Assembly: GCA_039208735.1 (NCBI GenBank) | Contig: JBCCQY010000056.1 | Coordinates: 1 to 48,606 of the forward strand | Source: Myxococcota bacterium | GTDB taxonomy: Bacteria > Myxococcota_A > UBA796 > GCA-2862545 | Direction of reading: 5' to 3' | DNA: 48,606 bases | In this document: piece after piece, positions 8,161 to 43,620 of the stretch | How the letters are laid out: each line of letters opens with the position of its first letter | Position numbering within the stretch: position 1 is the stretch's first letter | Made by a program: the position numbers and the translations under genes | The notes under the pieces: generated by a model | Told to the model about the DNA's origin: nothing | What the model saw: only the letters and a program-made list of their open reading frames with translations | Databases searched by the model: none

Positions 8161-9435
8161 ATGTGGTGGGGATTGGTGGCGCTCGCCAGCGCTGCGAGCC
8201 TGAAGAAGGAAGTCAAGGACGAACTCACCCACCCGACCCTCTACGGGGCGGTGCTTTCGGTTCGGGTCGATGACGAGCGAGGCAAGACCTTGTTTGAGCG
8301 GGGCTCTGAGCAGCGCCTCGTTCCCGCCTCGACCATGAAGTGGCTCACCGCGATTGCCGCGGCAGATCGACTCGGTCTCGACGACACCTTTGTGACCACG
8401 GTTCAAGTGTCGGGTGAGGTCGTGGGTGACACGCTGTACGGCGATATCTACTTCGTGGGCGATGGCGATCCATCGCTCGGCGAGGAAGACCCCACCGAGG
8501 TTCTCGATGAAATCGAGCGCATCTTCGCAGAAACCGGCATTCGTCGCATCAAGGGGGGCGTCGTTGTCGACAGCACCATCATCGCCGACCCGTTGTTGGG
8601 CCAAGGCTGGATGTGGGACGACATGCGGTTTGGGTTTTCAGCGCCGTTTGCGGGGCTGAACCTGGGTCACAACTTGGGGCACCGCGCGTTCGATGCGGAG
8701 TCCTGCGCCACGGTCGACGACAAGCGCAATGCTCCGCTCCTCGACCCTGTGACCTGCTTTGCCGATGTGCTTGATGCGCGCTTCGAGACCATGGGCATTC
8801 GAAGAAGCCAAGAGCCGCGGGTCGGACGGGCGCCCAACGATGCCACCGAGTTCGTGCGTTTCGAGAGCGAGCCGCTGCGCGAGCTCGTCAATCGCATGCT
8901 CCTCGACAGCGACAATCTCTACGCCGAATGCATCGCCCGGGCCATCGACGCCGATGGCACGCAGAGCCTCAAAGGGGCCCGTGAGGTCGTCGATGAGCTG
9001 TTTGCTCGAGCGGACCTCTCCCCCTCGTTCCTGCGCCTGGCGGATGGTTCAGGGCTTTCTCGGTATTCTCTTCTTTCGGCCGATACTCTCGTCGAACTCA
9101 CCGCGTGGGCCGTCGAAGAGCCCTGGGGACGGGAACTTCGGGACCTTCTGCCCGTCGCGGGCGTTTCGGGGACCCTCGAGAATCGCGGAGTCGGAACGCC
9201 TGCCGAAGGCCGGGTTTGGGCCAAGACAGGCTCGATGTCGGGGGTCCGCAACATCGTGGGCGTCGTGCAGGACGCCAAGGGCCGAAGCCTGCGCTTCGCG
9301 ATGCTGTTCAACGGGGTGGCGGCCCAGCGCGCGGCGCTCGAGGTCCAAGACCGGATCCTCACCTTGTTGTCCATTTCCCGCCGCCGACGAATTCGGAAGG
9401 CCGATCTCGAAGAAGCGTTTCCGAACGAGGAGTGA
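8161..9435 (+). CDS. dacB: D-Ala-D-Ala carboxypeptidase/endopeptidase (PBP4, peptidase S13)
   Basis: PASTMK (SxxK), GDGDP, SDN, DGSGLSR, AKTGS; ATG 8161 preceded by GAGGT. Confidence 0.92.
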
Positions 9436-9476
9436 CCCGGTTACGCCGCCCACCAATGACCAATGTGGAGGTCGAC

Positions 9477-9896
9477 GTGGCCATCGAGCACACCCTGTCC
9501 ATCATCAAGCCCGACGCCGTGAAGAAGAACCTGATCGGCAAGATTGTGGCCCGCTTTGAAGAAGAGGGCCTGCGCATCGCCGCGATGCGAAAGATCCATC
9601 TGTCCAAGCCCCAAGCCGAAGGCTTTTACGCGGTGCACCGCGAGCGTCCGTTCTTCGGTGAACTCACAGACTTCATGTGCAGCGCCCCCTGTGTTGTGAT
9701 GGTCCTTGAGGGTGACAACGCGATCAAGAAGAACCGCGAGATCATGGGGGCGACGAACCCCTCCGAAGCCGCCGAAGGCACACTGCGCAAGCTGTATGCT
9801 GACAGCGTCGGTGAGAATGCGGTTCACGGTTCCGACAGCCCCGAGAACGCGGCCATCGAGATCGCGTACTTCTTCCGCTCCACCGAGCTGCACTAA
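9477..9896 (+). CDS. ndk: Nucleoside diphosphate kinase
   Basis: [37 protein letters not shown] start after GGAGG gives the canonical 139 aa. Confidence 0.98.
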
Positions 9897-9899
9897 GCG

Positions 9900-10676
9900 G
9901 TGCCCTCCGCCCACCATCTTTCCCTTTCGTTGTCCCGCGAGCTGTGGAATGAGCTGCTGGGAGCTGCACTCCCGGTGCGGATTGCCGGACAGCCGATCGA
10001 CCTCACGCGGCAAGTCAGGGAAGTGGTGGGTCGGCTCAGGGTTCGGGAACGGGTCCGAGGGCTCATCCAAGACCAGCGGTCCCCCGAGGTGCTGCGTCGG
10101 GTTCGTGAGCTGTGGCACGCCCGCCGAGACGAGCTGTTCGACCGCATCGATGAGGTCGTGCGCATCGAGGGGGAATGGCAGATCGAACTCGATGCGTTTG
10201 GCACCGAGTTGGCCTACGGCCAGCAGAAGGTAAAGGCAGACGCCTACGTTCGCGCAGTGCTCGAAGGGTCGATCCACCTGATTGGCGACAATGTGGCCGT
10301 TCCCTTCCGGCTGGAGCGTCGGCTTGGGGCTTCGGTGGCCCTCGGAAACATTCACTACGATCCTTCGCATCAGGCCGTGGTGGGTCGGCTGCAGGACTTC
10401 ACCCTGGACTTGTCCGAAGACAACGCGCTATTGCAGGTGCTCGCACGTGGGATGGGGCTCCTACTCGACCAGCAGCTTCCGCGCACGCAGCCCGTGACGA
10501 TATTGAGGCGAGGGCAAGTGGAAGAAATGGTAGGTCCCATGGGGGGCTCCCTCCAGATGCGACTCGGCGTTGACGACCTTGACCTGGTGGTGGATGAAGG
10601 TCAGATGACCCTCAAGGTTCGCTTCGGATTTGTGCGAGATGGAGAATCGAGCACCGAGTTGGAACCACGGCAATAG
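9900..10676 (+). CDS. Hypothetical protein
   Basis: 258-aa ORF abutting ndk (3 nt gap), globular composition, no recognised motif. Confidence 0.75.
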   Translation: MPSAHHLSLSLSRELWNELLGAALPVRIAGQPIDLTRQVREVVGRLRVRERVRGLIQDQRSPEVLRRVRELWHARRDELFDRIDEVVRIEGEWQIELDAFGTELAYGQQKVKADAYVRAVLEGSIHLIGDNVAVPFRLERRLGASVALGNIHYDPSHQAVVGRLQDFTLDLSEDNALLQVLARGMGLLLDQQLPRTQPVTILRRGQVEEMVGPMGGSLQMRLGVDDLDLVVDEGQMTLKVRFGFVRDGESSTELEPRQ

Positions 10677-10757
10677 TTGCGGGTTGCCGCCGTGCGGCTC
10701 AATCGGCGATTTGCGTGGCTCGATGGGCCGGCCTACGTCCGTAACAGCGGAGGCGGA

Positions 10758-11672: not shown

Positions 11673-11704
11673 CCGCATGGCGTGGACGCCAAGCGCGGGA
11701 TCGC

Positions 11705-15952: not shown

Positions 15953-15980
15953 CGATCCGCCGCCTTAAGCATCTCGAACT

Positions 15981-16052: not shown

Positions 16053-16134
16053 TCATTCTAGAGTTCCCGTAGGTCGGATCGGCAAGGCTTAGGCATGTGA
16101 TGCTGGCTGCCGTGAGCACCTGCGTTGGAGCCTC

Positions 16135-19849: not shown

Positions 19850-21061
19850 GTGTTCGCCTGGTGGGCCGCCTGGACGGCCAGTGTTGCGTGGTCGGATGAA
19901 CCCTTGCCAACCTGTTCATTTCCCGATGATGAGGATGCGGTCTACGTTCTGACGGTTCAGCCGCTCGATGATGTCATTCGGCTGTTTGGCCATACTGCAT
20001 TGCTGTTTTGGGAGCCGAAGCGGGGGAAGCGGTCGGCGGTCTACGACTACGGGCGTTTTCGTTTGGAGGGGTCACCGCTTGACATCGTCAGGGACTACCT
20101 CACGATGCAGCAAGTGTACTTTTTGGGGGGCAATCCGCTTTCGCGCTCTCAAGCGCGCTACGGCGGCCAAGAGCGTGGGGTGATTGCCCAACGTCTCGAT
20201 CTTTCTGCGGAGGAAGCGCGGGCGCTGGAGTTGTCGATCATCGAGCAGCTTGCGGAGCCTGAGTTTCGCTACAACTGGTACGACCAGAACTGTTCCACCA
20301 AGGTTCGCGACCGCATCGACGAAGCGGTGGGGGGGGCGCTAAGGGCCGCGATGTCCGAACCGAGCGGCACCTCCCCGGCCGCCGAAGTGCTTCGCCACTC
20401 CGCCAACCATCCGCTGTGGTTGGGTCTCGAATGGGGCTCGACGCGGTTTGCTCGTTCAGAGATTACGGATTGGGATGCGATGTTCCTCCCCGAACCGATG
20501 ATGCATCGCCTCGAGGCTGCCCGGCGGGCCGATGGGCGGCCCCTCGTTGCGGAGACCTGTCAGTGGTTGCCGGCAGGCCAGCCTCCGATTCCGGTGGCCC
20601 CCCCACGGCGGGCGGGTGGACTGACGTTGGTGGGGCTTGGGTTGGCTGGAGTCCTGGGAGGGCTTCGCCGAAGCTCCGCCTTGGCAGGAGCGATGGGTTT
20701 TGGCACGTTCGCCTTCGTCTTGGCGCTGTGGGGAACCGCCGCGCTGATCGTCGGGTTGGCGGGGACATTCGCCCCGTTCTGGGGGAACGACAACCAGGCC
20801 TTTGCAAGTCCGCTCTGGGCGTTGGGAGGGTTGGCCGCGTTCGGCGCATTCCGTAACCCCGAGGCGCGATGGCCCGGGGTCATCGTCGTCGGGTTGCTCG
20901 GCGTCGCAGGGCTTGGGTTTGTCGGCAGTCTTGCGTTTGGCTTTGCCGCCGGAAACCTTGGTCTGGCGGGCCTACTCCTCCCTCCGATGGCCGTGTTCGC
21001 TTGGTTTGTCAGCGCTCCATGGCGGCTTGAAGCTGCTTCGCGATCTTCCGCAGGTCGTTGA
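19850..21061 (+). CDS. DUF4105 (Lnb-like) domain protein with C-terminal TM helices
   Basis: VLTV.P, FGHTAL, YDYG.F, FRYNWYDQNCSTKVRD, MFLP, then 4 TM segments; GTG after GGAGG. Confidence 0.8.
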   Translation: MFAWWAAWTASVAWSDEPLPTCSFPDDEDAVYVLTVQPLDDVIRLFGHTALLFWEPKRGKRSAVYDYGRFRLEGSPLDIVRDYLTMQQVYFLGGNPLSRSQARYGGQERGVIAQRLDLSAEEARALELSIIEQLAEPEFRYNWYDQNCSTKVRDRIDEAVGGALRAAMSEPSGTSPAAEVLRHSANHPLWLGLEWGSTRFARSEITDWDAMFLPEPMMHRLEAARRADGRPLVAETCQWLPAGQPPIPVAPPRRAGGLTLVGLGLAGVLGGLRRSSALAGAMGFGTFAFVLALWGTAALIVGLAGTFAPFWGNDNQAFASPLWALGGLAAFGAFRNPEARWPGVIVVGLLGVAGLGFVGSLAFGFAAGNLGLAGLLLPPMAVFAWFVSAPWRLEAASRSSAGR

Positions 21062-22042: not shown

Positions 22043-22044
22043 GA

Positions 22045-22542
22045 TTAGAAGCCTGTCACCATCGAGATGGCCTGCTTGACGGACTCGGGGGCCACGTGAG
22101 GGCTCAGCGCCGTATCGAATGCGCCAAGGTCCGCGTAGGGGCGGCCGGCAACCAGGGTCTTCGCGCCTTCTTCGCTCAACCCGTCGATCTGCATGAACGT
22201 CGCTTCGTCGCACTTGTTCGGGTCGATCGGCACGTAGACGAATGCTTCAAACGCGGTGACCGCCTCGGCGTCGATGTACTTGCCGATCTCTTTGCGGAAC
22301 TGCTGGATGCTGACGTACGGCCGGTACTCTTCGAACTCATGGACGAGCTTGGCGGTGATGCCGGGAATTGCCTTGAGTTCGTCTTCGGTGGCCTCATTGA
22401 GGTTCACCCGAGCCATCTGGGCTGGTGCCGCTTCGGGAGCTGCAGCAGGCGCTTCGGGGGCCTTTTCGACCACTGCCGCCGGTTCGGCTGGCTTTTCGGG
22501 CTCCTCGGGCGTCTCACACGCCAGTAACGCCATCCAGATCAT
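22045..22542 (-). CDS. Lipoprotein with two ComEA-like helix-hairpin-helix domains
   Basis: LLAC lipobox; RVNLNEAT..ELKAIPGI..RPY and IDPNKC..FMQIDGL..RPY. Confidence 0.8.
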   Translation of the reverse strand: MIWMALLACETPEEPEKPAEPAAVVEKAPEAPAAAPEAAPAQMARVNLNEATEDELKAIPGITAKLVHEFEEYRPYVSIQQFRKEIGKYIDAEAVTAFEAFVYVPIDPNKCDEATFMQIDGLSEEGAKTLVAGRPYADLGAFDTALSPHVAPESVKQAISMVTGF

Positions 22543-22561
22543 CGCACCCTCCCGAACCCGT

Positions 22562-26758: not shown

Positions 26759-27154
26759 CTACTCGAGAACGATCCGTTCGAGGTCGAATTCGTCGCACCC
26801 AGGCTCAAGCCACGCTTCCATCCCACCAAGGAGGAGACCGGAATAGGTCGCGAACCACCCGCTTTCGGAGCGCTCGACGGCGATGCTGCCAAGCTTGAAC
26901 GTCCCTTCCCGCAGGTAGACGACCCCAGGGCCTCCCGCGGCCCACGCCGTCTTGTACATGTATTGTTGGCTTGGAACCAACGCGAAGGCGTCACCGTCCT
27001 CCTGCAGGACGGCGCACGTCCCTTCGTACTCTTCCTTGTTGGTGTCGATGTTTTGCCACCACTCTCCGACGAGCAAGGTGTCTTCGGGCCCGTCAAAGAC
27101 GAGTTCCGGAGACACGCAGCTCGCCAACCCGAGGGCGAGGGTCGTGAGACGCAA
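26759..27154 (-). CDS. Hypothetical lipoprotein
   Basis: TTG after GGAG gives MRLTTLALGLASC lipobox; lipocalin-like LVGEW start of mature domain. Confidence 0.65.
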   Translation of the reverse strand: MRLTTLALGLASCVSPELVFDGPEDTLLVGEWWQNIDTNKEEYEGTCAVLQEDGDAFALVPSQQYMYKTAWAAGGPGVVYLREGTFKLGSIAVERSESGWFATYSGLLLGGMEAWLEPGCDEFDLERIVLE

Positions 27155-30126: not shown

Positions 30127-31182
30127 CTACAGCTCTGAGATGGTCAGGCTCAGGTCGCCGACGTAGGAGAGGTCGGTCTCGACGACCGCGATGACCGTTT
30201 GCCCCTCGGCGAGGGTCACCGTCAACATGGCGGCGTAGTAGTTTGCGTAGTTGAAATTGCAGGCCAGCGCCGAGCCCGCGCAGCTGTCCAACACGTAGAC
30301 GTAGTTCGGTACTGTGGAACCTGTGGTTTCGAAGACGTAGTCCCCCGCCTTCGGCGCGGTGAATCCAAAGGTTGTGTCGACGGTTGTGTAGCTTGTCGGA
30401 CCTGGACCGCACAGGCCCTGATCGGGCAGGTTGAGGTCGGTCAGACCGGCGCTGCTGACCGTGGTCGTTCCCAAGCCCACGGTCGTGGCGGGGCAACACG
30501 CGGCGTCGCCCGCACAGGTGAAGTCCGCGCAGTCTGCGAGGCCATCGCCATTGTTGTCGACGCCGTCGTCACAGACCCCTTCGTTGATGACCTCGGTGAT
30601 GTTCAAGACCACGTCACCTTGTTCGCCATCGTAGCCATCAACCACGATGATGACGGTCTGGCCTGCCACCATGGCAATACGCAGCGTCGATTGAACGGTG
30701 TCGGGATCGTCATCGTTGCAGATCAGTTCGGTGCCGCCGCAACTGTCCAGAACGGCCAGCACGGTATCGATGGCAGAGCCAAAGGTGTCGATCGTATATT
30801 GGCCGTCCAGGGGAGCCGTGAATTCGAAGGTGGCGTCCGGGGCGCCGCCGTAGCCGCAGCTAAGGAAATTCAGATCCGCCAAGCCTGCGGTGTTGATGGA
30901 ATAGGTTCCTGGGCCGGTGGTGACCTGCAGCGGACACGTCGGGGTGGTCATGCCGGTGTCGGCGTCGGTGTCCGCGTCACTATCCGCATCGGTGTCCGCG
31001 TCCGAATCGGCATCAGAATCGGCGTCGCTGTCCGCATCGGAATCCGCGTCGGAGTCGGCGTCCGAATCGGCATCGGTGTCGGCGTCAGCGCCGGGATCTC
31101 CCGAATCCAATGCTTTTTCGTCATCCGTACATCCGAGTCCCAGGAGACCAGCAATGATGAATATCCACGTATAAAGTTTCAT
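30127..31182 (-). CDS. Lipoprotein with DADS/T repeat stalk and two PPC-like beta-sandwich domains
   Basis: MKLY..LGLGC lipobox; FTAP..G.Y..DT.GS domains twice; Cys-rich CDDGVDNNGDGLADCAD motif. Confidence 0.85.
   Translation of the reverse strand: MKLYTWIFIIAGLLGLGCTDDEKALDSGDPGADADTDADSDADSDADSDADSDADSDADSDADTDADSDADTDADTGMTTPTCPLQVTTGPGTYSINTAGLADLNFLSCGYGGAPDATFEFTAPLDGQYTIDTFGSAIDTVLAVLDSCGGTELICNDDDPDTVQSTLRIAMVAGQTVIIVVDGYDGEQGDVVLNITEVINEGVCDDGVDNNGDGLADCADFTCAGDAACCPATTVGLGTTTVSSAGLTDLNLPDQGLCGPGPTSYTTVDTTFGFTAPKAGDYVFETTGSTVPNYVYVLDSCAGSALACNFNYANYYAAMLTVTLAEGQTVIAVVETDLSYVGDLSLTISEL
30955..31086 (-). repeat. Coding tandem repeat, 11 x 12 bp (Asp-Ala-Asp-Ser/Thr)
   Basis: 132 nt encoding DADT(DADS)6 DADT DADS DADT DADT with synonymous codon variation. 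Confidence 0.95.
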
Positions 31183-31268: not shown

Positions 31269-31718
31269 TCAGTTCATTTGTGGAACCACATCCCACCACA
31301 CCGCGAAGGCGTGGTCTTGATTGCAGAACCACAGTTGATGAACGCCGTCAGGAACCGGATGGTCGGTCTGGTGCGTCGTGGGAAGCGAGAGTCCGGTGGC
31401 GTCGGCAAACATTCCATTTAAGGAACCTGCGACAATATTCGTCATTTCGCCAATGAGGTCGCTGCAGTCCTCATCCGAGATGGCGCCATCTGGTCGATTG
31501 AATACCTTGGCGGCTGCCATTCGGGCCAGCGGAGTGGGCATTTGGACGTGCACGGTCATGGGAGGCGACGTGGGAACCTGAACGAGGCCTTTGAAGCCCG
31601 GTCCCGTCACCTTGCGCGGTGCGATACGCTCGATGGGCGTGTCGATCACCTGTTCAAAAAGGCCGTACGTTGCTTCCACGACACACGCTTCGAGGTCGTT
31701 TGGGTCCACCTGATTCAA
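31269..31718 (-). CDS. cheX: Chemotaxis phosphatase CheX
   Basis: DLIGEMTNIVAG (ExxN) and LSLPT motifs; TTG start overlaps cheR stop. Confidence 0.85.
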   Translation of the reverse strand: MNQVDPNDLEACVVEATYGLFEQVIDTPIERIAPRKVTGPGFKGLVQVPTSPPMTVHVQMPTPLARMAAAKVFNRPDGAISDEDCSDLIGEMTNIVAGSLNGMFADATGLSLPTTHQTDHPVPDGVHQLWFCNQDHAFAVWWDVVPQMN

Positions 31719-32533
31719 AATGCCTCCACGCGTCGGTAGCAACCCGAACGCGGTACCTCGACCCGCTGCCATTGGTTGCCGCTGGGTGGGCTTTCCGACC
31801 CTCCCAAAAAGAGGAATCCGTCGGGCCGAATTTGGCCAACCATCCGTCGAAGGACGGCATCTTTGTCTGCCACATCGAAGTAGATGAGCACGTTGCGCAG
31901 CAGCACAATGTCGAACGTGGGCAATCCAGACCATGCCTCGGTCAGGTTCAGTTGCTGAAAGCTCACTCGGGCTCGAAGTCGGTGATGGAGTCGCCACACC
32001 ATGCCGCGACGCTCGAAATGCCGCATGAGTTGGGGGGCCGACAGTCCTCGGTTCACCTCGACTTGTCGGTATTCTCCACGCTCGGCGCGCAACAGGACAC
32101 TCTGCGACAGGTCCGAAGCAAGAATCTGTACGTCCCACTCCGCAAGTGCGGGGAAGTGGTCGGCAATGAGCATGGCCACGCTGTAGGGCTCTTGGCCTGT
32201 GGAGCAAGCGGCCGACCAAATGCGTAGGGTTTTCGATGCGGCGTTGTGGCGCATGACTTCGGGCAACACCACATCCAACATCACATCGAACGGCACGGCA
32301 TCGCGAAAGAAGCTGGTTTCGTTCGTCGTCATGGCGTCGACCACGAGGTCCGCCAGCGCTCGGTTTCGACCGCGGTCGAGACGGTCGCAGAGCTGGTCAA
32401 CGTCTTGAAGCCCCTGAGCCCGAGCCACGGGCTTCAGCCGGGTTTCGACGAGGTACTCCTTGCCCTCTTCAAGCACGATCGAAGCACGCTGCCGAATCAA
32501 GGAACGGATTTGTTCAAAGGACTCTCGACGCAT
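31715..32533 (-). CDS. cheR: Chemotaxis methyltransferase CheR
   Basis: TTNETSFFRD, RIWSAACSTGQEPYS, LRNVLIYFD. Confidence 0.96.
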   Translation of the reverse strand: MRRESFEQIRSLIRQRASIVLEEGKEYLVETRLKPVARAQGLQDVDQLCDRLDRGRNRALADLVVDAMTTNETSFFRDAVPFDVMLDVVLPEVMRHNAASKTLRIWSAACSTGQEPYSVAMLIADHFPALAEWDVQILASDLSQSVLLRAERGEYRQVEVNRGLSAPQLMRHFERRGMVWRLHHRLRARVSFQQLNLTEAWSGLPTFDIVLLRNVLIYFDVADKDAVLRRMVGQIRPDGFLFLGGSESPPSGNQWQRVEVPRSGCYRRVEAF

Positions 32534-33682
32534 TTAGGCCCTCTGGGGTGCGTGGGAGAGCACCTCGGAGAGTTGTTCATGGATCGCCTCGGCCATGTGA
32601 TCGAGAGGCACCACGGCATGAGCGATGCCCGCTTCCTCAATGGCCCGGGGCATCCCCCAAACGACGCAACTCGCCGCGTCCTGAGAAAGGATGCGGCCCC
32701 CAGCGGCAGCGATGGCCTTTCCGCCGAGCAACCCGTCGCGCCCCATTCCGGTAAGTACGACGGCCAAGACGTTGGCTCCGCAGACGTTGGCGCCTGTGCG
32801 AAAGAGCACGTCGACGGCAGGGCGGCAGGAGTTTTCGGGCTCATCCTGGGTGAGCTTTGCCCACAGTTCGGCGCCTCGCGCGGCCACTTCGAGGTGGTAG
32901 TCGCCCGGTGCGATGTAGATGTGAGCTGCGCGGAGGGGTTCGCCGTGGACGGCCTCGCGAACCGTCACGGGACACAGCTGGTCCAGTCGAGCCGCCATTT
33001 GCCGAGTGAACATCGGCGGCATGTGCTGCACGACGAGCGTCGGCAAGGGCAGCGGATGGGCCAGGGCAGGAAGCAGCCGGCCCAGCGCTTGGGGACCCCC
33101 TGTCGAGGTCCCAATGAGCAGGAGTTGGGGACGCCACTTTCGCGGCCTTCGCGGGCGTACCGCGGGCACTGGCGTGGGCTCGGGCTCGGGCTCGGGCGAC
33201 GCCGGGGAAGAGGGCGGCTCGATCGTGGTCCCGGCGGGCTCGGACCGCTCCGCCAACCCATAGATGTTGGCCAGTCGGCGACGGGTACGAACCAACGCCA
33301 CGATCTTGTCGCTTAGACGGCGCATCGTGGCCGAGAATCCCTCCGACGCGGAGGAGGGCTTCAGGACGTAGTCGCTTGCGCCGCGTGCAATGGCGTCGAA
33401 GGTGGCTTTGGCCCCAGGTTCGGTGAGACTGCTGAACATCACGATGGGCAGCATCGGGTACTCCCGACGCAGCTGATCCAGCGCATCGAGGCCGTTCATG
33501 ACCGGCATCTCAATGTCGAGGATCACGGCCTCAGGCCGCACCTTGGCGACGAGGGTGAGCGCTTCGCGGCCGTCTCGGGCCAGCCCGATCAGGTCGATGT
33601 CATCGCGATCGCGAAGGGCCCGCCCCACCATGCGGAGGACGGTCGCCGAATCGTCGACGAGCACGACACTAGCGGGCTGCAT
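32534..33682 (-). CDS. cheB: Chemotaxis response regulator methylesterase CheB
   Basis: Receiver (VDDS, LDIEMP, KP) plus GTSTGGP, VQHMP, RPAVDVLF, LTGMGRDG, VWGMP. Confidence 0.96.
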   Translation of the reverse strand: MQPASVVLVDDSATVLRMVGRALRDRDDIDLIGLARDGREALTLVAKVRPEAVILDIEMPVMNGLDALDQLRREYPMLPIVMFSSLTEPGAKATFDAIARGASDYVLKPSSASEGFSATMRRLSDKIVALVRTRRRLANIYGLAERSEPAGTTIEPPSSPASPEPEPEPTPVPAVRPRRPRKWRPQLLLIGTSTGGPQALGRLLPALAHPLPLPTLVVQHMPPMFTRQMAARLDQLCPVTVREAVHGEPLRAAHIYIAPGDYHLEVAARGAELWAKLTQDEPENSCRPAVDVLFRTGANVCGANVLAVVLTGMGRDGLLGGKAIAAAGGRILSQDAASCVVWGMPRAIEEAGIAHAVVPLDHMAEAIHEQLSEVLSHAPQRA

Positions 33683-34067
33683 GCTGAACCAGACCCAGGC
33701 CTTCCAGACGTTCCGCGAGGGCCGCACTCGAGAATGGCTTCATGATGTAGTCGTTGGCTCCGGCCTGGAGGGCTTGGGCAATGCGGTGAGGGGAGGACTC
33801 GCTGCTCACCATCACGACCTTCATCTCGTCGTAGACGGGGTCTTCGCGGAGGGTCTCGATAAGTTCAAGGCCATCCATCTCGGGCATCATCCAGTCCACA
33901 AGTACCAACTCTGGAACTCGTGTTTGGGCCAATCGGCTGAGCGCATCCCGTCCGTTGTCGGCGTCGATGACGTCGTAGCCCACCATCTCAAGCCCTCGGC
34001 GCAACAACGCCCGCATCGCCCGGGAGTCGTCGACGATGAGCGCGCGCCGAGGCAATGCCGTGCTCAT
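33669..34067 (-). CDS. cheY: CheY-like response regulator
   Basis: Single receiver: IVDDS, VDWMMP, SSE, KPF. Confidence 0.9.
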   Translation of the reverse strand: MSTALPRRALIVDDSRAMRALLRRGLEMVGYDVIDADNGRDALSRLAQTRVPELVLVDWMMPEMDGLELIETLREDPVYDEMKVVMVSSESSPHRIAQALQAGANDYIMKPFSSAALAERLEGLGLVQHAAR

Positions 34068-34504
34068 GGAGTTGCCTCACCGATGCTTGCGGATCGTTCG
34101 GGGTCGAGCACCAACAACAGCCGGTCCGGCAGCTTGCAGACCGAATCGACCACGTGGCGAAGGTGGGTTGGCAACGTGGGTGGTGGCGGCTCGAACGAGT
34201 TTTCGTCCACTTCGATCACGTCTCCGATGTCATCGACAATGATGCTGATGAGGCCTTCTTCAAGTCGGATCACGACGTTCATCGGCGCTCCCTCATCGTC
34301 GGACGGCGGGAGTCCCAATCGGCTGCGCAAATCCACCGCGGTGACGATCTGGCCTCGAAGGTTGATCAATCCCCGCACGATCTGGGAAGAAAGTGGAACC
34401 TGAGTGATCTGCTCGAATCGGATGACCTCCTGAATGCGAATCACCTCGAGGGCGAAGAGCAGGTCATCCACGTGAAAGGTGCAGAGCTGGGTGGCGGTGG
34501 TCAT
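34064..34504 (-). CDS. cheW: Chemotaxis adaptor CheW
   Basis: QEVI, TQVP, GLINLRGQIV, IVDDIGDV. Confidence 0.95.
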   Translation of the reverse strand: MTTATQLCTFHVDDLLFALEVIRIQEVIRFEQITQVPLSSQIVRGLINLRGQIVTAVDLRSRLGLPPSDDEGAPMNVVIRLEEGLISIIVDDIGDVIEVDENSFEPPPPTLPTHLRHVVDSVCKLPDRLLLVLDPERSASIGEATP

Positions 34505-36897
34505 CAGTGCCTCGCCAGGTCATGGACGAAGGAAGCGTCGAGCAGTTCGGTGATTTTGCCGTCGATGACGGCCGTAAAGGAGACGCCTTGGCGACTGCTG
34601 GGCCCGCGAACGGTCAGCGCCCGTTCGATTACGTCCTCAATGGAGTCGACGACGAAGCCGACCTGTCGCTCGCCGTTGGAGTGGACGACGACCTGGAGGC
34701 TCTCTGATTCGACGGGTGCTCCGCCGAAAAACTCGGACAGATCAATGAGGGGAAGCAGGGCATCGCGATACTGGATGACGTTCTGACGGCCGACGTGCTC
34801 AATACGCTCCCGAGGGAACTCCTCAAGGCGGGCGACATCGTCGAGGGGGATGGACAAGGGGGCCTTGCCTCCCGCACGAAAGATCAGCCATCGGGTGGCC
34901 GGTTCGTCGTTGGCGTCCGTCTGGGCGTTGTTGGCGGCTGCAATGTGGCGGTCCGCCTCGTCGAGCTTGGCGCGCTCGGACAGTCCGATGACGTCCAAGA
35001 TGAGCGCCACACGACCGTCGCCCATGATGGTGGCCCCCGCAAAGGTGGACAACCCCTTCAGCTCGCGCCCCAACGGCTTGACGACGATCTCTTCGGTATC
35101 GAGCACCGTATCGACGAGTAGGCCAAACTGTCGGTCGTCTGCCTGCAAGACCACAATGTTTGTGTCGCCGTCGTCCTCGACTTCGGGCAGCTCGAGGACC
35201 GACCCGAGGTCCACGAGGGCAAGCAAGTTTCCGCGAAGGCGGAAGAGGGGGACGCCGCTGATGCGTTCCACGGCTCGGTTGCCTTCATCCGTGTCGAGTC
35301 GCACGAGTTCGACGAGGTTCACCTGGGGAATGGCGAACCGTTCGCCTCGGGTTTCCACCACCAACGCAGGCACGATGGCCAGGGTGAGGGGAATGCGAAT
35401 GCGGACCGTCGTGCCCTGGCCAAGCTTGCTGTCGAGGTCGACCGACCCGCCGATGCGCTCGATGTTGCTGCGCACGACATCCATGCCGACGCCACGACCC
35501 GACAGCTTCGTGACCTTTTCAGCGGTCGAGAATCCAGCCAGGAACAGCATGCTGATGGCTTCACTGGGCAGCATGGACCGCGCATGGTCGGCCGAGATGA
35601 GCCCTCGCTCGATCGCCTTGGCCTTGACCTTTTCGGGGTCGACTCCCCGGCCATCGTCGGCAATCTCGATGTTGACGCGTCCCCCCTCGTGGAAGGCGCG
35701 AAGCCAGATCGTGCCCTGTTTGGGTTTGCCGGCCGCCTCACGCTGCTCCGGTGTTTCGAGCCCATGGTCGATCGCGTTGCGAACGATGTGGGTGAGCGGA
35801 TCGGCGATGGCCTCGATGATGCTCTTGTCGAGTTCGGTCGCCTTTCCATCCATCCGAAGTTGGACGTCTTTCTGCGTGGCCACCGACAAATCGCGCACAA
35901 TACGCGGATAGCGAGCCCAAACCTTATCGATGGGCTGCATTCGCGTCTTCATGACGCCTTCCTGCAGCTCCGTCGTAATGAGGTCGAGTCGCTGAGACGT
36001 GGCCGTGAGCACGGGGTCCGCGCTCTCGCTCGTGTACTGCAACAGCTGGTTTCGGGCGAGGACGAGTTCGCCCACCAGGTTCATCAGGGTGTCGAGCAGC
36101 CCCACATCGACGCGAATGCGCGTGTCGTGTCGAGCCGGCCGGGGCATGGTCGGCGCAGGAGCGTTGGGCACTGCGGCAGACTCGAGTGATGCTTCGGCCG
36201 GCATCGGGATCTTGGTTTCCGGACCTCGATCCGGCACGCGCACTGCCTCGGTCGGAGCGGCCGGCGCCTCGGCGGTGGGGGCGGGTTCGGCCGGTTCAGG
36301 TTCCGCGGCCGGAGGGTCGGCCGACGGGGCCTCCGCCTCGGGCGCCGGGGCTTCGGGCTCCGCGGCCTGCGGTGGCGCTTCGGCGACCTCCGATTCGGGC
36401 TCGGGGGCGGCCGCTGCCTCCGTGGCGGCAGCGGGTTCGGCGTCGGCGTCGGCGGACGCGGTTGCGCTGCGGCTGGCGGAATCCAAAAGCGCCTTGGATT
36501 CCTCAAGACGCGTGTCGTCTTTGGCAACTGCCAACGCCTCGATCAGGGTGCCAAAGTGGCCCTGACCCTCTGAACCAGTGGTTTCGACCTGGTCGAGCAG
36601 CTGCCGAATGGCGTCGACCATGGCGAGGAGCGCGCTGGTTCGCACCTGCTCCAGCACAATCTCGGACGCCCGGAGCCCGGAAAGCAAGCTCTCCCCGGCG
36701 TGGGCAACCTTCTCGAGTCGGTCGAACCCAAAGAACCCGGCCGTGCCCTTGATCGTGTGAACGATGCGAAAGATGCTGGACAGTCGGTCGGCATTGGTGG
36801 GATCGGTTTCCAGTTCGACGAGTTCGCCGTCCAGCTGATCGAGGTTCTCTCGGCTTTCGAGCACGAACTCCGCAAGGAGTTCCGCATCTTCGGTCAT
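34504..36897 (-). CDS. cheA: Chemotaxis histidine kinase CheA with two CheW-like domains
   Basis: Hpt FRIVHTIKG, Ala/Pro/Glu linker in place of P2, P3 [45 protein letters not shown]5 plus a second CheW domain. Confidence 0.97.
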   Translation of the reverse strand: MTEDAELLAEFVLESRENLDQLDGELVELETDPTNADRLSSIFRIVHTIKGTAGFFGFDRLEKVAHAGESLLSGLRASEIVLEQVRTSALLAMVDAIRQLLDQVETTGSEGQGHFGTLIEALAVAKDDTRLEESKALLDSASRSATASADADAEPAAATEAAAAPEPESEVAEAPPQAAEPEAPAPEAEAPSADPPAAEPEPAEPAPTAEAPAAPTEAVRVPDRGPETKIPMPAEASLESAAVPNAPAPTMPRPARHDTRIRVDVGLLDTLMNLVGELVLARNQLLQYTSESADPVLTATSQRLDLITTELQEGVMKTRMQPIDKVWARYPRIVRDLSVATQKDVQLRMDGKATELDKSIIEAIADPLTHIVRNAIDHGLETPEQREAAGKPKQGTIWLRAFHEGGRVNIEIADDGRGVDPEKVKAKAIERGLISADHARSMLPSEAISMLFLAGFSTAEKVTKLSGRGVGMDVVRSNIERIGGSVDLDSKLGQGTTVRIRIPLTLAIVPALVVETRGERFAIPQVNLVELVRLDTDEGNRAVERISGVPLFRLRGNLLALVDLGSVLELPEVEDDGDTNIVVLQADDRQFGLLVDTVLDTEEIVVKPLGRELKGLSTFAGATIMGDGRVALILDVIGLSERAKLDEADRHIAAANNAQTDANDEPATRWLIFRAGGKAPLSIPLDDVARLEEFPRERIEHVGRQNVIQYRDALLPLIDLSEFFGGAPVESESLQVVVHSNGERQVGFVVDSIEDVIERALTVRGPSSRQGVSFTAVIDGKITELLDASFVHDLARH

Positions 36898-36913
36898 CGG
36901 GGCCTCCGCCGGA

Positions 36914-38503
36914 TCAGTCGGACAATGCGTCGACCGCCTGACGCAGCTCGCCTGACAGCGATGCCAGCTCGGTCGCGGCGGTGAGGGTCTCCTGAGCACC
37001 CGACCGCGTGCTTTGTGCCGCGCGGTTCACTCCGTGGATGCTCTGGCTGATCTGCTCGGCACCGGCTGCCGCTTCGGCCGCACTGCGGGCGATCTCCTTC
37101 GTCGTGGCCGCCTGTTCTTCCACGGCCCCGGCGATGGTGTTCTGGTAGTCGTTGATTTGGCCAATGATGGTGGAGATGTGCTGGATGGCGTCGACTGCAC
37201 GTTTCGTGTCGAATTGGATGGCCTCGATCTTTCGACTGATGTCTTCGGTGGCCGCTGCCGTTTGCTTGGCCAGTTCCTTGACTTCGTTCGCGACAACTGC
37301 GAATCCCTTGCCCGCCTCGCCCGCTCGGGCGGCCTCGATGGTCGCGTTCAAGGCAAGGAGGTTCGTTTGCTGGGCGATCGAGGTGATGACCTTGATGACC
37401 TTGCCAATCTCGACCGAACTCGCGCCGAGCTGGGCGACGGTGCCGTTGGTTTGCTCTGCGGCTTCCACCGCAGTCATCGCCACTTGGGCGGCATCGTTGG
37501 CGCTCCGCGCAATCTCGCGGACCGTCGCACTCATCTGATCCGCACTGGCGGCGACCGATGCGACGCTCTGAGTCACCTGCGAGGAGGTTTCCGCCACGCG
37601 CTTGGCCTGCTCGGTGGTCTCCTGGGAGTTCTTTTCGAGCTGTTTGGCGACCGTCTCGAGTTCGTTCGAGGCCTCGTTGACCCGGTTGGCATTTGCATCG
37701 AGTCCCTGCGTTGCGCGACGGTCGCGCGTCAACGACTCGAGTTGAATCATCGTGCCGAGCTTTCCTCCGGCCGCGTCCCGAATCGGATTGGCGCGGACGC
37801 GAAGCACTTCCTCACCGAGTTCCGCCTCGGTGGTCTGTGGCCGATCCGCAGCCTCATAAAGGAGTTCACGGAGGGACTTCGGCGTGGTGGGGAACACCTC
37901 GACCGCACTGCCCACAATCGAGGCCAGAGGAACCGCAATCTGGCTTTGTAGGGTTTGCGCAAGGGTGGTGCCGGCCGGGTTGAGCGACTGGATGGTGCCT
38001 TCGCCATCGACAAAGAGGGTCGCGACCGACGAAGCCTGAACCATGAACGGAAACCGAGAGAGTTCGGTGAGTTCCGACTGCTGGGCTTCGTCCTTTTGCT
38101 TGAGGGTCTGGACCTGCGACTCGAGCGTGCCCAGGTCCGGAACCTCTGGGCAGAGGACCCGTACGAAGGTGACGGCGCCATCTTCGACGATGGGGAGGAA
38201 GGTCGCCCAGACCTGCCGGACATCACCGTTCCCTGTTTCAAGAGGAAGAGAGGCGGAGCTTGGCGTCCCGGCGACGGAGGAGGACCAGGCCGTGGCAAGG
38301 TCATGGGTGGTGCCGCCGCGAACGATGGAAGCGAACGGCTGTCCGACGACCGCGGCCTCCACCGACCCGAGCAAGCGTGCTGCGGCGGGGCTCGCCTGCT
38401 GTACGCGCCCGTCGGCTCCGACATCGAATACCGGAGTCGCGGCCCAAAGCGCCGTTTCAGAGGCAGTACGAGGGGCGGAATGCGCCAGGGTTTCGTTGGA
38501 CAT
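36914..38503 (-). CDS. Soluble methyl-accepting chemotaxis protein with PAS-like N-terminal domains
   Basis: [37 protein letters not shown]; no TM segment; two PAS-like segments. Confidence 0.93.
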
Positions 38504-38658
38504 AGGGTTCCGGGGGTTGGTGGACTCTTCCGCATCATCGATGGCTGACCGCCGCGGCTTGAGTGGACCCCGGCTCGCGTAAAGCCTTGGGTTGAGCGTG
38601 CGGACATGCGTCGATGGCAATCCCTGGCACGCGGTTACGCTCGCACCATGGAGCGACC

Positions 38659-40296
38659 ATGAGCCAATTGGATCCTTCGAATCCGACTCGTGTGCTTCGG
38701 GAGGTTCGCGAACAACTCGAGGCCTTGGGGGGACCCTCGGTCGAGCAGGCCCCCACGCTTGCGAGGCTTTGTCGAACGCTCGAAGACCTTGGGCCTGCGC
38801 AGACCTCGGAGTCGTTGTGGGCCGTGGCGAAGGCGGCTGCGGAAGCGTTGAAACACGACAACGCGTCGACCAAACTTGAAGTTCGGGTTGCGCTTGACCG
38901 CGCCCTCGAGACCTTGGTGGGGGCACTTGGCGCCTTGGTCGATGGCCACCCCATCGATCACCACGAAGGGGCCCTGCGACTGGCCAAGGCCATGCTCCGG
39001 GCGACCGGGGACCACAATCCATCGGTGTCCGACCTCGACCTGTTTGTCGGCAACGCTGCACGAGACTTGCAGGTGGCCCGACACTCGTTGGACGAGCTGG
39101 CGGCCGATCCCACACACCGGGACGCGGTTCATGCGGCGTTTCGGGCGGTTCACACCGTGCGCGGTGACGCAGGTGTGATGGGGGCCCAGAACGTTGAGGC
39201 GGTCTGTAGTCGCCTCGAGACGATCCTCGAAGCCGTTCGGTCGAGTGAGGCGGTGGCCACCCAGCGGGTGGTCAAAGCGTGCCAGTCCCTCATCGACCAC
39301 GCGCTGACCGCGGTGGTAGAACCGGCCACTCGATTCGATGATGCCACCTTGGACCACTACCTGACCTGCCTCGACGAAGGCCGGTCGTTGGCAAAGGCCA
39401 CCCGCCTTGGCGAACTCCTCGTCAAGGAGCAGATGGTCGACGCCCACGACATCGAGCTTGCGTTGGCGATCAAGTCGGGCCCGGTCGGGCGCACTCTCGT
39501 CAACCTCCGGGTCATTGGCGATGATGACCTTGACCGCGTCCTCGAGTTGCAGAAAGAGCTGCGCCGAGGGGGCTCGGTTCGGCCAGGGCCCACCCACGTC
39601 AAACGGGTCAGCGTGGCCGAGGACACCCTAAATCAGCTCACGAAGGCGGTTCGCGAACTGCAGACGCGGGTGGTCGATCTGCCGACGATCCCCTTTATGC
39701 AAGATGTCGTGCGGCTCACCGAGCGATTGCAGCAGCAAAACATGGGTTCGTTGTTTCGGAAGCTCGCCCGGGCGGCGCGTGCGTTGGCTGACGAGTTGGG
39801 CAAGGAAGTCTGGGTGTCGGTGACGGGAGGCTCCGTCGAAGTCCACCGGCAGATCGTGCAAGCGTTGGATGCGCCGCTCCTCCAGCTGGTGCGCAACGCG
39901 TTGGACCACGGAATCGAGCGTCCGCCGCTGCGTCGGGTGGCCGGAAAGCCGGCCCGGGCCACGCTGACGTTGGCGGCCCACCTCGAAGGGCCCAACCTCA
40001 TGGTGGAAGTGGGCGACGACGGTGCTGGGATCGATGTTGCCCGGGTGCTGCAGCGCGCCATCGACATGGGCTTGGTGCCGCCTGGCGATGCCACCCAAAT
40101 GTCCGATGAAGAGGTTCAACGACTCATCTTTGAACCAGGTCTCTCGGGCACGACCCGCATTGGGCGCATCTCGGGACGTGGCGTGGGCATGGATGTGGTC
40201 GAGCACGCCGTACGAGCCCTTGGCGGGCAGATCGTGTTGGATTCCCAACGCGGCATGGGGACTCGGTTTCGCCTGGCCTTGCCCAATCTTCGTTGA
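38659..40296 (+). CDS. Atypical CheA-like histidine kinase: Hpt + MshEN-like motif + HATPase, no CheW/P5 domain
   Basis: [62 protein letters not shown]; ends at LALPNLR. Confidence 0.88.
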
Positions 40297-40358
40297 ATTT
40301 GCATGGAGGGGGGAGCCGGTCGATCCGATGTCTCCCTTGAACGGGAGCGAGGTGCCGC

Positions 40359-41216
40359 ATGGACGTTTTGGTCGTCGATGACAGCTCGGTGATGCGCAAG
40401 ATGGTGCGGCGTGCGCTGCGCCAGGCTGGCTTCAAGAATCTCAATGTTCGCGAAGCGGAGAACGGTCGGGCTGCCCTGGCCGAAGTGCAACGTGAAAAGG
40501 TCGACATGGTTCTTTCTGACTGGAACATGCCCGAGATGACGGGGATCCAGTTGCTGCGGGCTCTCCGCAAGCGGGGGGATCAGACGCGATTCGGGTTCAT
40601 CACGTCGGAGTCGACGGCCGATATTCGGGCCCGAGCGACGTCGGCGGGTGCCCTCTTCGTGCTGAATAAGCCGTTTACGCCGGAATCGATGCGGGCGGCA
40701 TTTGAAGAGGCGGGGCTCGTCAAGGCCACTGGAGCGAAGCGAAACTTCGTTGCAGACCGTTTCGATGCGCCAGCTATCCAGAAGATGCTCACGGAGCTGG
40801 TGAGTCGCCGCATGGGAGTCCGCGCGCTGGACGTTGAGCCCATCGTGAAGACGGACCCGGCGGTGTGGGCGATTTACATCTTCGACAACGACGACCTAGG
40901 TTGCTTGCTTCGCTTCGAGTTCGAGCTGGCCGCGTCGATGGGGGCGGCTTTGGGCATGCGTAGCCCCGAGCAGGTCATGGGCATCCTCAAGCAGGGCACG
41001 TTGCCCGAGGACCTTCGCGCCGACACCTACGAGACCCTCAACGTCATGGCGCGCCTGCTCTCGCAACGTCGCCACGTTCGACTGTCCCAGGTCATCTTCC
41101 CGCCGGATCAGCCGAGCGCGGACGTTTTCCAGTTCCTCGACAACGCAGGTCAGCAGCAGGACTTCCATGTGCTGCCGTCCGGCTTTATGCCGGGTCGGAT
41201 GTCGTACTTCTGGTAG
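40359..41216 (+). CDS. Response regulator receiver fused to CheC/CheX-like domain
   Basis: VVDDS, SDWNMP, TSE, KPF; C-terminal domain with YETLNV (ExxN); GAGGT SD. Confidence 0.85.
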   Translation: MDVLVVDDSSVMRKMVRRALRQAGFKNLNVREAENGRAALAEVQREKVDMVLSDWNMPEMTGIQLLRALRKRGDQTRFGFITSESTADIRARATSAGALFVLNKPFTPESMRAAFEEAGLVKATGAKRNFVADRFDAPAIQKMLTELVSRRMGVRALDVEPIVKTDPAVWAIYIFDNDDLGCLLRFEFELAASMGAALGMRSPEQVMGILKQGTLPEDLRADTYETLNVMARLLSQRRHVRLSQVIFPPDQPSADVFQFLDNAGQQQDFHVLPSGFMPGRMSYFW

Positions 41217-43016
41217 TCATTGTGGCGGGAGCACCACGATGGACGGACCATCGTGGTCGTGTTGCAGTACGGCGACCCGCCCCAGGTCGGGATGGTGTTG
41301 CGTCGCGTCGACGCGAGGCCCCGCAGCAAGCGACCACCGTTCCATGGCTTCCGCGCGATTGACGACGATCCGGGTCACTCCATCGCCAGATGCCAACAGG
41401 GTTTCCCCCCTTGGGCCAAACTCGAGACCATGCACGTCTCGAACGGTGGGCAGCACCTTTCGGGCAAATCCTGACTCGACGAAGAACAGGCTTACGCCGT
41501 CCTCGAACGCTGCGGCGAGGACGTTTCCGTCCGGCGACACCGCGATGGCCTTGGGAAAGCTGTCGTAGGGGATGGGCCATCGCTTGCCCATGGGGCGGCC
41601 TCGAGCATTTCGTAGGACGATGGCCGAGTCCCAAACCACGGCGTGGTAGCGGCCCGCCACCGCCACTTGAGGGACGTCGAGCGGCGGGCCGACTCGAGGG
41701 CCTCGCCCGGCTCGCGGACCCACGCGCACCGCGTCCCGCGTCCATGACACCCAACGGCCGTCGGGCATGGCCAAGGCGCCCCGTGTCCCCTTGAGCCGAG
41801 CCACCCGAAGGGCTTCGGACTTGCCCCGTTTGGCGACGTAGGCCGCTTGGTCGGTGGCGATTTCGAGTTGATCGGGTTTGCCGCCCACGTCGAGGACGAG
41901 GCAGCCCAGATCCGGATCGGATGGGCATTGGGGCAGGGTCTTGGTCCAGGCCACACGGTCGAGGCCGTCGGCGGGAACCCCCCACACCCGACCGTCATCC
42001 GAACCGAGAACGAATGGACCTTCGGGTACTGCCCCTACGAACGTCACCCGGCTCACGTCTTCGGGGACAGGCACAGCGGTGACCCGAGGGGGCCGCCAAA
42101 GCGACCATCGCTCGAGGGTGTCGCCGACTGCGAGCCAGAGGGACACCCGCCGGTTGACGAGTACAAAGGCACCCGCAACGGCATCGCGGCTGACGAACGC
42201 GGCAGCGGGTTCGGGGGCGAGCGCCCAAGGAATCACCGCACCATCGACGAGCCAGTGGTCGTTTGGGCCCGCCACGAGTTGCTGAATTCGGCGGGGCCAT
42301 CGGGGGGGATCGGTGGCCGGAAGGAGGTCGGCGGTGGAGAGGGGCGTGCTGCGTCCCGATGCGTCGAGGGTCCGTAACCAGCGCTGGCTGGCTGCAATCT
42401 CGACAATGCCGGGGTGTTCCCGCTCCGCCTGCACCGTGCCGAGGCGGTCGAGACGTCGCAGGGCTTGGCCATCACTGACGATGATGGCCTCTTGGGGGCT
42501 TGCGAACACCACCGGTCCCCCGCCGTAGGGGCGCTCCCACCGGATTTCGCCTGTGGTGGCGTCGTACCACGTCACCATCTCGCCCGCGGACACGACGAGA
42601 GAGGCCCCACGCGGGGAGAGGGCGGCGTCTCGGAGTTTCTCCACGTTCCACTCTGCGACGCGGCCCCCATCCGCGTCGATCACGGTGACACGCTCGGTTC
42701 CCCCGATGGCGAGTCGGCTACCGTCGTCGGCCCAGGTGATGACCCGGGCCGCACCCGGCGTGCCTCGGACGACGAACCGCGGTGCCCCATCCGCGTCATG
42801 CACGTGCACCGCTCCATCCTGCAGGCGCACCGCGAACCGAGACCCGTCTCGCGAGGCCACCAACGCGCCGTCGAATGGCGCAGGCAACGCGATGCGGTCA
42901 TCGAAGCGATGGCGCGCGGCAAGGATATCGGAGCGCGCCACCCGGGCAGAGGCCGGGGGCGGAGGCTCGGGTTCGGGCGGAGGTTCCCCACAAGACAGCA
43001 GCGCCAGCAGCAACAT
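41217..43016 (-). CDS. WD40-like beta-propeller lipoprotein
   Basis: LLSC lipobox; repeated blades (SRDGSRF, WADDGSRL, LSPRGASL, VSPDGNVL, FGPRGETL). Confidence 0.8.
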   Translation of the reverse strand: MLLLALLSCGEPPPEPEPPPPASARVARSDILAARHRFDDRIALPAPFDGALVASRDGSRFAVRLQDGAVHVHDADGAPRFVVRGTPGAARVITWADDGSRLAIGGTERVTVIDADGGRVAEWNVEKLRDAALSPRGASLVVSAGEMVTWYDATTGEIRWERPYGGGPVVFASPQEAIIVSDGQALRRLDRLGTVQAEREHPGIVEIAASQRWLRTLDASGRSTPLSTADLLPATDPPRWPRRIQQLVAGPNDHWLVDGAVIPWALAPEPAAAFVSRDAVAGAFVLVNRRVSLWLAVGDTLERWSLWRPPRVTAVPVPEDVSRVTFVGAVPEGPFVLGSDDGRVWGVPADGLDRVAWTKTLPQCPSDPDLGCLVLDVGGKPDQLEIATDQAAYVAKRGKSEALRVARLKGTRGALAMPDGRWVSWTRDAVRVGPRAGRGPRVGPPLDVPQVAVAGRYHAVVWDSAIVLRNARGRPMGKRWPIPYDSFPKAIAVSPDGNVLAAAFEDGVSLFFVESGFARKVLPTVRDVHGLEFGPRGETLLASGDGVTRIVVNRAEAMERWSLAAGPRVDATQHHPDLGRVAVLQHDHDGPSIVVLPPQ

Positions 43017-43026
43017 GCCGCCCGTT

Positions 43027-43620
43027 CTACCTCGAATCGGGCAGAACGAGCACATCGGTCTTGAGATTCCGAGGGAGCGCGGCGCGTAGAGCATCGATGT
43101 CCGCGTTGTCGAGCGCGATGCACCCGAGCGTCCAATCGCTCGACGACCCGCCGCCGTGAATCAAAATCTGACCCCCGAGCCGCGTGTTCATGGGAGGCAG
43201 ACGATGGGCGCGTTGGGCTTCGATGATGGCGTCATGCTGGGGTTGGGTGATCAGCCCTTCGCGAAGGCCCCGTTGGGCATCGCGTTCGGCGGGGTAGTCG
43301 ATCGTCAAGGCCGCATAGAATCGTGACCAAGGCCGGTCCGAGGTTCGGTACCACCCTTCAGGGGTTCGTAGGTCGCCCTGACGCTGCTTGGTCCCTGGGC
43401 GGTAGCCCGATGCGAGGGCCACGCGGAAACAGGCGTCACGACCCCCCAACGTCTTGCGGCGAGTGCCATTGGCGAACAGCATGAGGCGCCGCGCAGACTT
43501 GTCGACCACGATGACGGCGGGCCCCTTCAACCGAGCCACGGTTGGCGTGGGCAGGGACTCGACCGTGTCGGGACAGGGCGAGGCCGCTTGGGCCACCCAC
43601 GCAAACACGAATCCCACCAC
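43027..43620 (-). CDS. L,D-transpeptidase family protein (YkuD; YafK/DpaA-like)
   Basis: IVVDKSARRL, KQRQGDLRTPEG.Y, IHGGG..WTLGCIAL (catalytic His/Cys). Confidence 0.9.
   Translation of the reverse strand: MVGFVFAWVAQAASPCPDTVESLPTPTVARLKGPAVIVVDKSARRLMLFANGTRRKTLGGRDACFRVALASGYRPGTKQRQGDLRTPEGWYRTSDRPWSRFYAALTIDYPAERDAQRGLREGLITQPQHDAIIEAQRAHRLPPMNTRLGGQILIHGGGSSSDWTLGCIALDNADIDALRAALPRNLKTDVLVLPDSR

Follow-up and report, generated by a model that had tools for sequence, protein, structure and literature searches.

Putative short hydrophobic signal peptides without a basic n-region in an order of Myxococcota, and a candidate prl-like change in the SecY pore ring

The window analysed here, a stretch of 48,606 nucleotides (contig JBCCQY010000056.1 of assembly GCA_039208735.1, positions 1 to 48,606, forward strand), comes from a Myxococcota bacterium of the GTDB lineage Bacteria; Myxococcota_A; UBA796; GCA-2862545. 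Six of its genes begin with a short hydrophobic leader that carries no Lys or Arg, and in two cases the leader closes with a lipobox of the signal peptidase II (SPase II) type. An earlier reading of the DNA alone (the original prediction) had described these leaders, and all six are present at the positions, with the sequences and with the Shine-Dalgarno (SD) motifs that it gave, as are the distances of 19 and 10 nucleotides between an upstream stop codon and the starts at 22542 and 43016, respectively; the latter start has no SD. Leaders of the normal, charged type coexist with them in the window, as was likewise noted. The features are as follows.

8161..8193, + strand: uncharged leader of 11 residues, signal peptidase I (SPase I)-type, of a DacB/PBP4 homologue (gene 8161-9435; PF02113, TIGR00666); start supported by orthologues, one of them stop-bounded
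19850..19894, + strand: uncharged, Trp-rich leader of about 15 residues of an Lnb_N/DUF4105 protein (gene 19850-21061; PF13387); GTG after GGAGG; start posterior 0.95
22516..22542, - strand: 8-residue leader plus lipobox Cys9 of an HhH (ComEA-like) predicted lipoprotein (gene 22045-22542); start posterior 0.96
22548..22552, - strand: GGAGG Shine-Dalgarno motif of the 22542 start, from the sequence
27116..27154, - strand: intermediate leader with one Arg, lipobox Cys13 and a TTG start, from the start model
31129..31182, - strand: normal charged lipoprotein leader (Cys18), for comparison; from sequence and start model
42990..43016, - strand: 8-residue leader plus lipobox Cys9 of a beta-propeller predicted lipoprotein (gene 41217-43016); start posterior 0.72
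43585..43620, - strand: uncharged leader of 12 residues of a YkuD L,D-transpeptidase (gene 43027-43620; PF03734); GTG after GGAGG; start posterior 0.73
44437..44472, - strand: uncharged leader of about 12 residues of a pentapeptide-repeat protein (gene 43657-44472); start model ambiguous
46754..46804, + strand: normal charged lipoprotein leader (Cys17), for comparison; from sequence and start model

The uncharged starts had been held to be the best supported, but it had been overlooked that four of the six genes have in-frame upstream starts that would add Lys or Arg (GTG 22587, ATG 43055, GTG 43644 and ATG 44502), and for this reason the window alone is no proof of short starts. In the DacB gene an in-frame TGA leaves GTG 8155, which adds two uncharged residues, as the only upstream start, and in the Lnb_N gene the alternative GTG 19823 brings no Lys or Arg. 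The start model gives 8161 a posterior of 0.46, its alternatives 8155 and 8176 being likewise uncharged. The orthologues argue for the short start in five of the six genes. In the related genome G001 the orthologues of the propeller and pentapeptide-repeat proteins are stop-bounded and can have no longer start, the former with its lipobox at Cys11, and the orthologue of the transpeptidase has its GTG at the place equivalent to 43620 and lacks the upstream Lys/Arg peptide. The pentapeptide-repeat protein had been named as a possible member only; the start model is ambiguous here (0.27 at 44472, with another start preferred), but its G001 orthologue is bounded by a stop at the equivalent place. 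Uncharged leaders are found in all six other close orthologues of DacB, and in one of these (L093) a stop lies one codon ahead of the ATG; the leaders of the second DacB paralogue in those genomes are mostly of the normal Arg/Lys type. Eight orthologue loci of Lnb_N include five clear short uncharged leaders, one longer leader with Arg and two ambiguous cases. The exception is the HhH protein, for which no orthologue was found in five genomes with one query; here the posterior of 22542 compares with 0.02 for GTG 22587. Orthologues with longer, Lys/Arg-containing starts, named at the outset as the observation that would count against short leaders, are largely missing: short starts are kept and long ones are lost. 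The leaders, being without Arg, contain no twin-arginine (Tat) signal, and none of the six has a prepilin (signal peptidase III) motif of the GFTLIE type, at which cleavage precedes the hydrophobic stretch (accessible text of PMC9360617).

The source genome (9.4 Mb, 64% GC, 92.7% complete, 6.2% contaminated) was used for the genome-wide histogram of lipobox-Cys position and charge that had been proposed as a check. Genes were called with a dicodon model and starts with a model of SD, start codon and coding potential that holds no signal-peptide information; out of 6932 modelled genes, the count took in the 4795 proteins that have 120 residues or more and a start posterior of 0.7 or higher. A first count had excluded charged residues before the Cys, and the count for Cys 8-11 was therefore redone without a charge filter. 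A lipobox Cys at position 8, 9, 10 or 11 occurs in 20, 46, 59 and 55 proteins, respectively, over an internal background of 5.2 per position, i.e. in 180 of the 4795 proteins where about 21 would be expected. Lys or Arg precedes the Cys in only 17 of these 180, against an expected 42-54%. From Cys position 12 on most leaders contain Arg; the distribution peaks at 15 and its excess is gone near 20. Under stricter filters 242 leaders are uncharged (median Cys 11, range 7-23) and 390 charged (median Cys 16), so that charged leaders coexist with the uncharged ones and are short too. The distance from Met to Cys in uncharged leaders (median 10) is smaller than that from the last Lys or Arg to Cys in charged ones (median 12). 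The remark that several leaders are rich in Trp holds for the whole genome, Trp making up 12.5% of the residues of short leaders and 3.9% in charged leaders. Among the 161 uncharged leaders with Cys 8-11, 64 have no upstream ATG, GTG or TTG and 97 have some upstream start codon; an SD is present in 132 (0.82, compared to 0.75 for all genes), and in eight an in-frame stop lies within three codons upstream, in one of them directly before the ATG.

In other respects the short lipobox leaders resemble SPase II signals. They have an invariant Cys after a hydrophobic run, a lipobox of the type L-x-[AG]-C, a composition like that of the longer leaders, and a polar linker rich in Pro and acidic residues after the Cys, as in the normal leaders of the same genome. 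A Pfam match was obtained for 12 of 18 proteins drawn at random from the 64 start-bounded ones (six had no match), to extracytoplasmic families that include the DUF1592 cluster, FG-GAP, S41 peptidase, DsbD_N/redoxin, trypsin and, with scores below cut-off, cytochrome P460 and arylsulfotransferase. The PROSITE PS51257 rule places the Cys at 15-35 and Lys or Arg within the first seven residues. The uncharged leaders lie mostly short of that range, and the rule would overlook the short ones, since these have no basic n-region and a Cys at 8-11.

Uncharged hydrophobic starts are found in 526 of 4041 soluble proteins, compared to 34-42 at internal offsets, and 352 of these 526 have no lipobox (SPase I-like). 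In this class of 352 the frequency of an A-x-A-type motif is highest at residues 10-14 (0.18-0.25 versus a background of 0.05, a statistical signal and not one per protein), small residues at -3/-1 are found in aggregate, and acidic residues rise after the A-x-A enrichment. The class cannot be used to examine n-region charge, because it was selected as uncharged. Exported families were picked independently of their leader. Eight of 22 TonB-dependent receptors combine an uncharged leader (about 11-18 residues, judged by eye, and not all ultra-short) with the absence of any upstream start, and so have no positively charged n-region; the remaining receptors are charged, ambiguous or mis-started. 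For Omp85 the best start is uncharged in all six of the eight proteins that could be mapped to called genes, only one of which has no upstream alternative. The passengers thus come from exported families, i.e. DacB, YkuD and Lnb_N in the window and TonB receptors, Omp85 and OmpA in the genome.

Two side observations were made in these families. BamD/YfiO (L213-L242; G000:C68:35730-36311) appears to have an SPase I-type leader and no lipobox in nearly all of 24 genomes of the order and class, as judged by eye, and a lipobox Cys in six of six genomes from other phyla; the class as a whole may have a soluble BamD. A TonB-receptor barrel (G000:C82:20954-22138) lies within a frame of 1026 residues, the N-terminus of which resembles a membrane protein more than a signal peptide, possibly a fusion.

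The distribution of the leaders was followed with two DNA patterns, one for short leaders (SD, ATG, hydrophobic codons, lipobox at Cys 8-10) and one for normal leaders (SD, ATG, polar codon, longer lipobox). A first pattern, applied to 161 genomes of the phylum, was noisy and was replaced; of 94 genomes intended for the final patterns, selected partly after that noisy scan, 80 were scanned, and the genomes of the order are kin and not independent. The 47 genomes of the order have a median of 21 short matches, with at least 12 in 34 of them (pooled, 1137 short to 3931 normal), whereas the 22 class and phylum outgroups have a median of 3 and a maximum of 11, with none reaching 12 (94 to 1213). 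None of 201 Pseudomonadota genomes reached 12 either (at most 10 according to the table, in genomes of smaller size), and ten further genomes reached via named loci gave 0-5 short matches. Within the order the numbers of short and normal matches range from 1/75 to 58/39. One of the two closest DacB matches (L008) carries the label Myxococcota, and its genome (G190) has 28 short and 97 normal matches. A flank-scan control was too poor in lipoproteins to be of use (four in 516 kb of outgroup loci, two in 111 kb of relatives). The short-leader trait is confined to the order; at the level of the lineage it departs from the n-h-c rule for signal peptides (n-region, hydrophobic core, cleavage region).

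The original prediction had pointed to SecA, SecY, Ffh and the processing enzymes as places where a lineage-specific change might be sought, and such a change was found in transmembrane segment 5 (TM5) of SecY. Pore positions were assigned by alignment to E. coli SecY, in which I187 corresponds to A182 of the source genome, using 33 sequences of the order and 22 of outgroups (after omission of two fragments; in four genomes no SecY was matched). All 33 sequences of the order have Ala (19) or Ser (14) at the I187 position, where all 22 outgroups have Ile (17) or Met (5), and all 33 have Thr, Ala, Ser or Val at the F192 position, also in TM5. The five other ring positions, including I191, I278 and I408, are unchanged in the order, which forms a single clade on a quick SecY tree (SH-aLRT 100). 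The positions of I187 and F192 are the only two among 1635 columns compared (424 of SecY, 441 of Ffh and 770 of SecA) that combine almost no overlap between order and outgroups with a change in volume of 60 cubic angstroms or more. I187 is a member of the isoleucine ring according to the accessible text of PMC2171872, so that all 33 sequences carry a substitution in one of the places (ring, plug or lateral gate) where prl-type changes are sought. In the parts of the sources available, ring substitutions are described that make E. coli SecY super-active (PMC13537251) and that let yeast export a signal shortened by four residues (PMC3164448). Judged from the alignment, I187A/S is a candidate natural prl-like change.

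The rest of the machinery looks ordinary for the most part. The source genome has single genes for SecY, SecA, Ffh and FtsY, and no second SecA or SecY was found in it; it encodes Fmt, two deformylases and Lnt, and a loss of SRP (signal recognition particle), of formyltransferase or of deformylase was rejected on these grounds. Motif searches returned no TatC, YidC or SecE, an outcome that says nothing on whether these proteins are encoded. Both copies of LspA keep the catalytic Asp residues, LspA and Lnt are above the NCBIfam cut-offs, and a comparison of 17 LspA sequences of the order with 17 of outgroups showed only mild order-specific columns and no radical change; an altered LspA was rejected accordingly. 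Together with four Lgt-family genes, all above the Pfam cut-off and all below that of TIGR00544, the machinery for SPase II processing is thus encoded. In SecA ten of the 770 columns have low overlap, none with a large volume change and none mapped to function. Ffh is retained in 30 of 30 genomes, and its M domain (L265-L294) has in the order a two-residue insertion in the loop that follows the first helices of this domain, presumably the fingerloop, with a near-fixed Q-x-P-x-x-A-L motif in 15 of 16 sequences of the order and none of 14 of the outgroups. One of the three full LepB-family genes is canonical; judged against it, the catalytic Ser, or this Ser together with the Lys, seems to be missing from the paralogues L125 (G000:C19:35984-36697) and L126 (G000:C52:11810-12715), taking these residues to have their usual roles. 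The Lgt-family proteins L003-L006 are divergent, with Tyr, Phe, Thr and Val where, as we take it, the E. coli enzyme has its catalytic His.

We propose that the leaders are genuine but reduced Sec signals, handled by ordinary SecYEG and processing enzymes and possibly tolerated through the Ala or Ser at the I187 position of SecY, an explanation that we consider, taken as a whole, slightly more probable than its negation. A leader, about 8-15 residues long, would consist of Met, a short hydrophobic core that in many cases is rich in Trp, and a cleavage box, would enter the ordinary channel, and would be cut by LepB or lipidated via Lgt, LspA and Lnt. The smaller ring residue would lower the barrier to channel opening, like laboratory prl alleles do at other ring positions. 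The basic n-region would have become optional in the ancestor of the order, after which the use of short leaders may have drifted up or down per genus. That the short-leader proteins are exported and processed is very probable; that SecY is the enabling change is a possibility to which we give rather less than even weight. A non-canonical export or processing rule, as originally suggested, thus stands as far as an order-wide departure from the n-h-c scheme and a SecY change are concerned; a separate pathway or processing rule is not supported, and the machinery genes are ordinary. There is a continuum from short to normal leaders, and BamD orthologues exchange one for the other; an optional n-region with a shortened h-region is the better description. 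The leaders appear to be a real, order-restricted variant of Sec/SPase I and Sec/SPase II signals that would work like these and departs from them in n-region and length. A bolder form of the proposal is doubtful: a natural prl lineage in which fixed shrinkage of the SecY ring and TM5 (I187A/S, F192T), perhaps together with a reshaped loop in SRP and a formyl cap that is kept, would let uncharged, non-spanning peptides of 7-10 residues serve as full export and lipidation signals.

Several points weigh against this proposal. Export, cleavage and lipidation are all deduced from sequence. The link to SecY is a single evolutionary event, and the volume threshold was set after SecY had been seen; low-overlap columns number ten each in SecY and SecA and five in Ffh, and kin share many changes. 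Among 148 other SecY cluster representatives, 19 have Ala or Ser at the I187 site, 23 have Val and 8 have Thr, so that it is the loosest ring position; two representatives with Ala (P0035, P0038) are labelled Planctomycetota. In eleven of the 47 genomes of the order the short matches stay at background level (at most 9), and low-use members with an aligned SecY also carry the I187 change; no dose relation of Ala versus Ser to short-leader use was seen among the genomes of the order. The prl positions listed in the accessible text of PMC2171872 (G69, I191, I278, S282, I408) do not include I187, nor does I187 occur in the main text, as available, of PMC13537251. Finally, the patterns were tuned on the source genome and therefore favour its relatives.

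Without any change in machinery, ordinary Sec, LepB, Lgt and LspA could take a very hydrophobic short leader in which the deformylated Met amine is the sole charge, the trait being due to drift and perhaps a thin membrane. A basic N-terminus affects efficiency and is not essential (accessible text of PMC9360617), leaders form a continuum in which BamD orthologues may have or lack an n-region, LspA is not radically changed, and the use of short leaders varies from 1/75 to 58/39 under the same SecY. However, the trait is missing in the 22 outgroups, which are rich in lipoproteins, and in 201 Pseudomonadota, and the Met amine is no simple stand-in for Arg, because Met lies closer to the Cys than the last Lys or Arg does (10 versus 12); we regard this alternative as unlikely. 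A further account starts from the observation that SRP binding prevents deformylation in E. coli (accessible text of PMC5454389): early binding would leave a chargeless formyl-Met leader that sinks in, so that a Cys at 8-11 reaches the outer face, favoured by the changed Ffh loop. The retained Ffh, Fmt and two deformylases, the order-specific insertion, and leaders that are rich in Leu and Trp and shorter than the charged ones would fit this account, but loop insertions are common lineage markers. As a separate explanation it is distinctly improbable; it is compatible with reduced Sec signals passing a changed SecY, and does not exclude them.

Uncleaved membrane anchors or unprocessed starts with an unlipidated Cys would agree with the low TIGR00544 scores of all four Lgt-family proteins, and eight residues are too few to form a helix across the bilayer. 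Such anchors would not account for the L-x-[AG]-C box followed by the same linker as in normal leaders, for the A-x-A enrichment and subsequent rise of acidic residues, or for the presence of such starts on beta-barrel outer-membrane families, and we hold them to be very improbable. Mis-called starts, with true initiation upstream, possibly at unusual codons, and a basic n-region added, could draw on the upstream starts in four of six window genes and in 97 of 161 short lipobox genes. They are largely refuted, and were rejected with hardly any residual doubt, on the 64 genes without an upstream start, the eight with a nearby stop, the SD rate, and orthologues in which the short start persists and the long one is gone.

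With the Sec/SPase II signal of the E. coli Lpp type the leaders share a hydrophobic run followed by an L-[A/V/L]-[A/G/S]-C lipobox, as well as the Lgt-family, LspA and Lnt genes, whereas they differ in having no basic n-region, a Cys at 8-11 and much Trp. With the Sec/SPase I signal of the n-h-c model (accessible text of PMC9360617) they share the hydrophobic core, small residues at -3/-1, passengers from exported families and a canonical LepB, but their n-region is Met alone and the predicted cleavage falls mostly after residue 10-14. Laboratory prlA and sec61 prl alleles (I191, I278, I408; yeast I86T, M294S) likewise make a bulky ring residue small and are found beside defective-looking signals; the change in the order is natural, fixed order-wide, at I187 outside the listed prl sites, and known here from the alignment. 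Eukaryotic ER signal peptides also have a very short n-region, with the free Met amine possibly the only charge (SignalP 6.0 preprint, accessible text), but the bacterial Met is formylated at first and many leaders of the order end in a lipobox. In the open-access literature searched, whose coverage leaves out most subscription papers, we found no description of such leaders in Myxococcota, in agreement with the original prediction, nor of natural I187 variants.

Bacterial export has as core rules a basic n-region and a minimum length, and prediction tools incorporate both. For these bacteria the secretome is probably under-predicted or assigned wrong starts. With hundreds of proteins in each genome that break these rules, the order provides a large natural collection of minimal signals, and the two SecY residues provide a specific, testable hypothesis that bears on signal proofreading by the translocon and on the access of Lgt and LspA to a Cys near the N-terminus. 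Should the order be a natural prl lineage, it would set a new lower size bound for signal peptides, tied to one transferable channel change.

Elsewhere in the window, a chemotaxis-like run of genes (31269-41216) with CheA-, CheW-, CheY-, CheB- and CheR-like starts was noted, judged from the called genes without a family scan.

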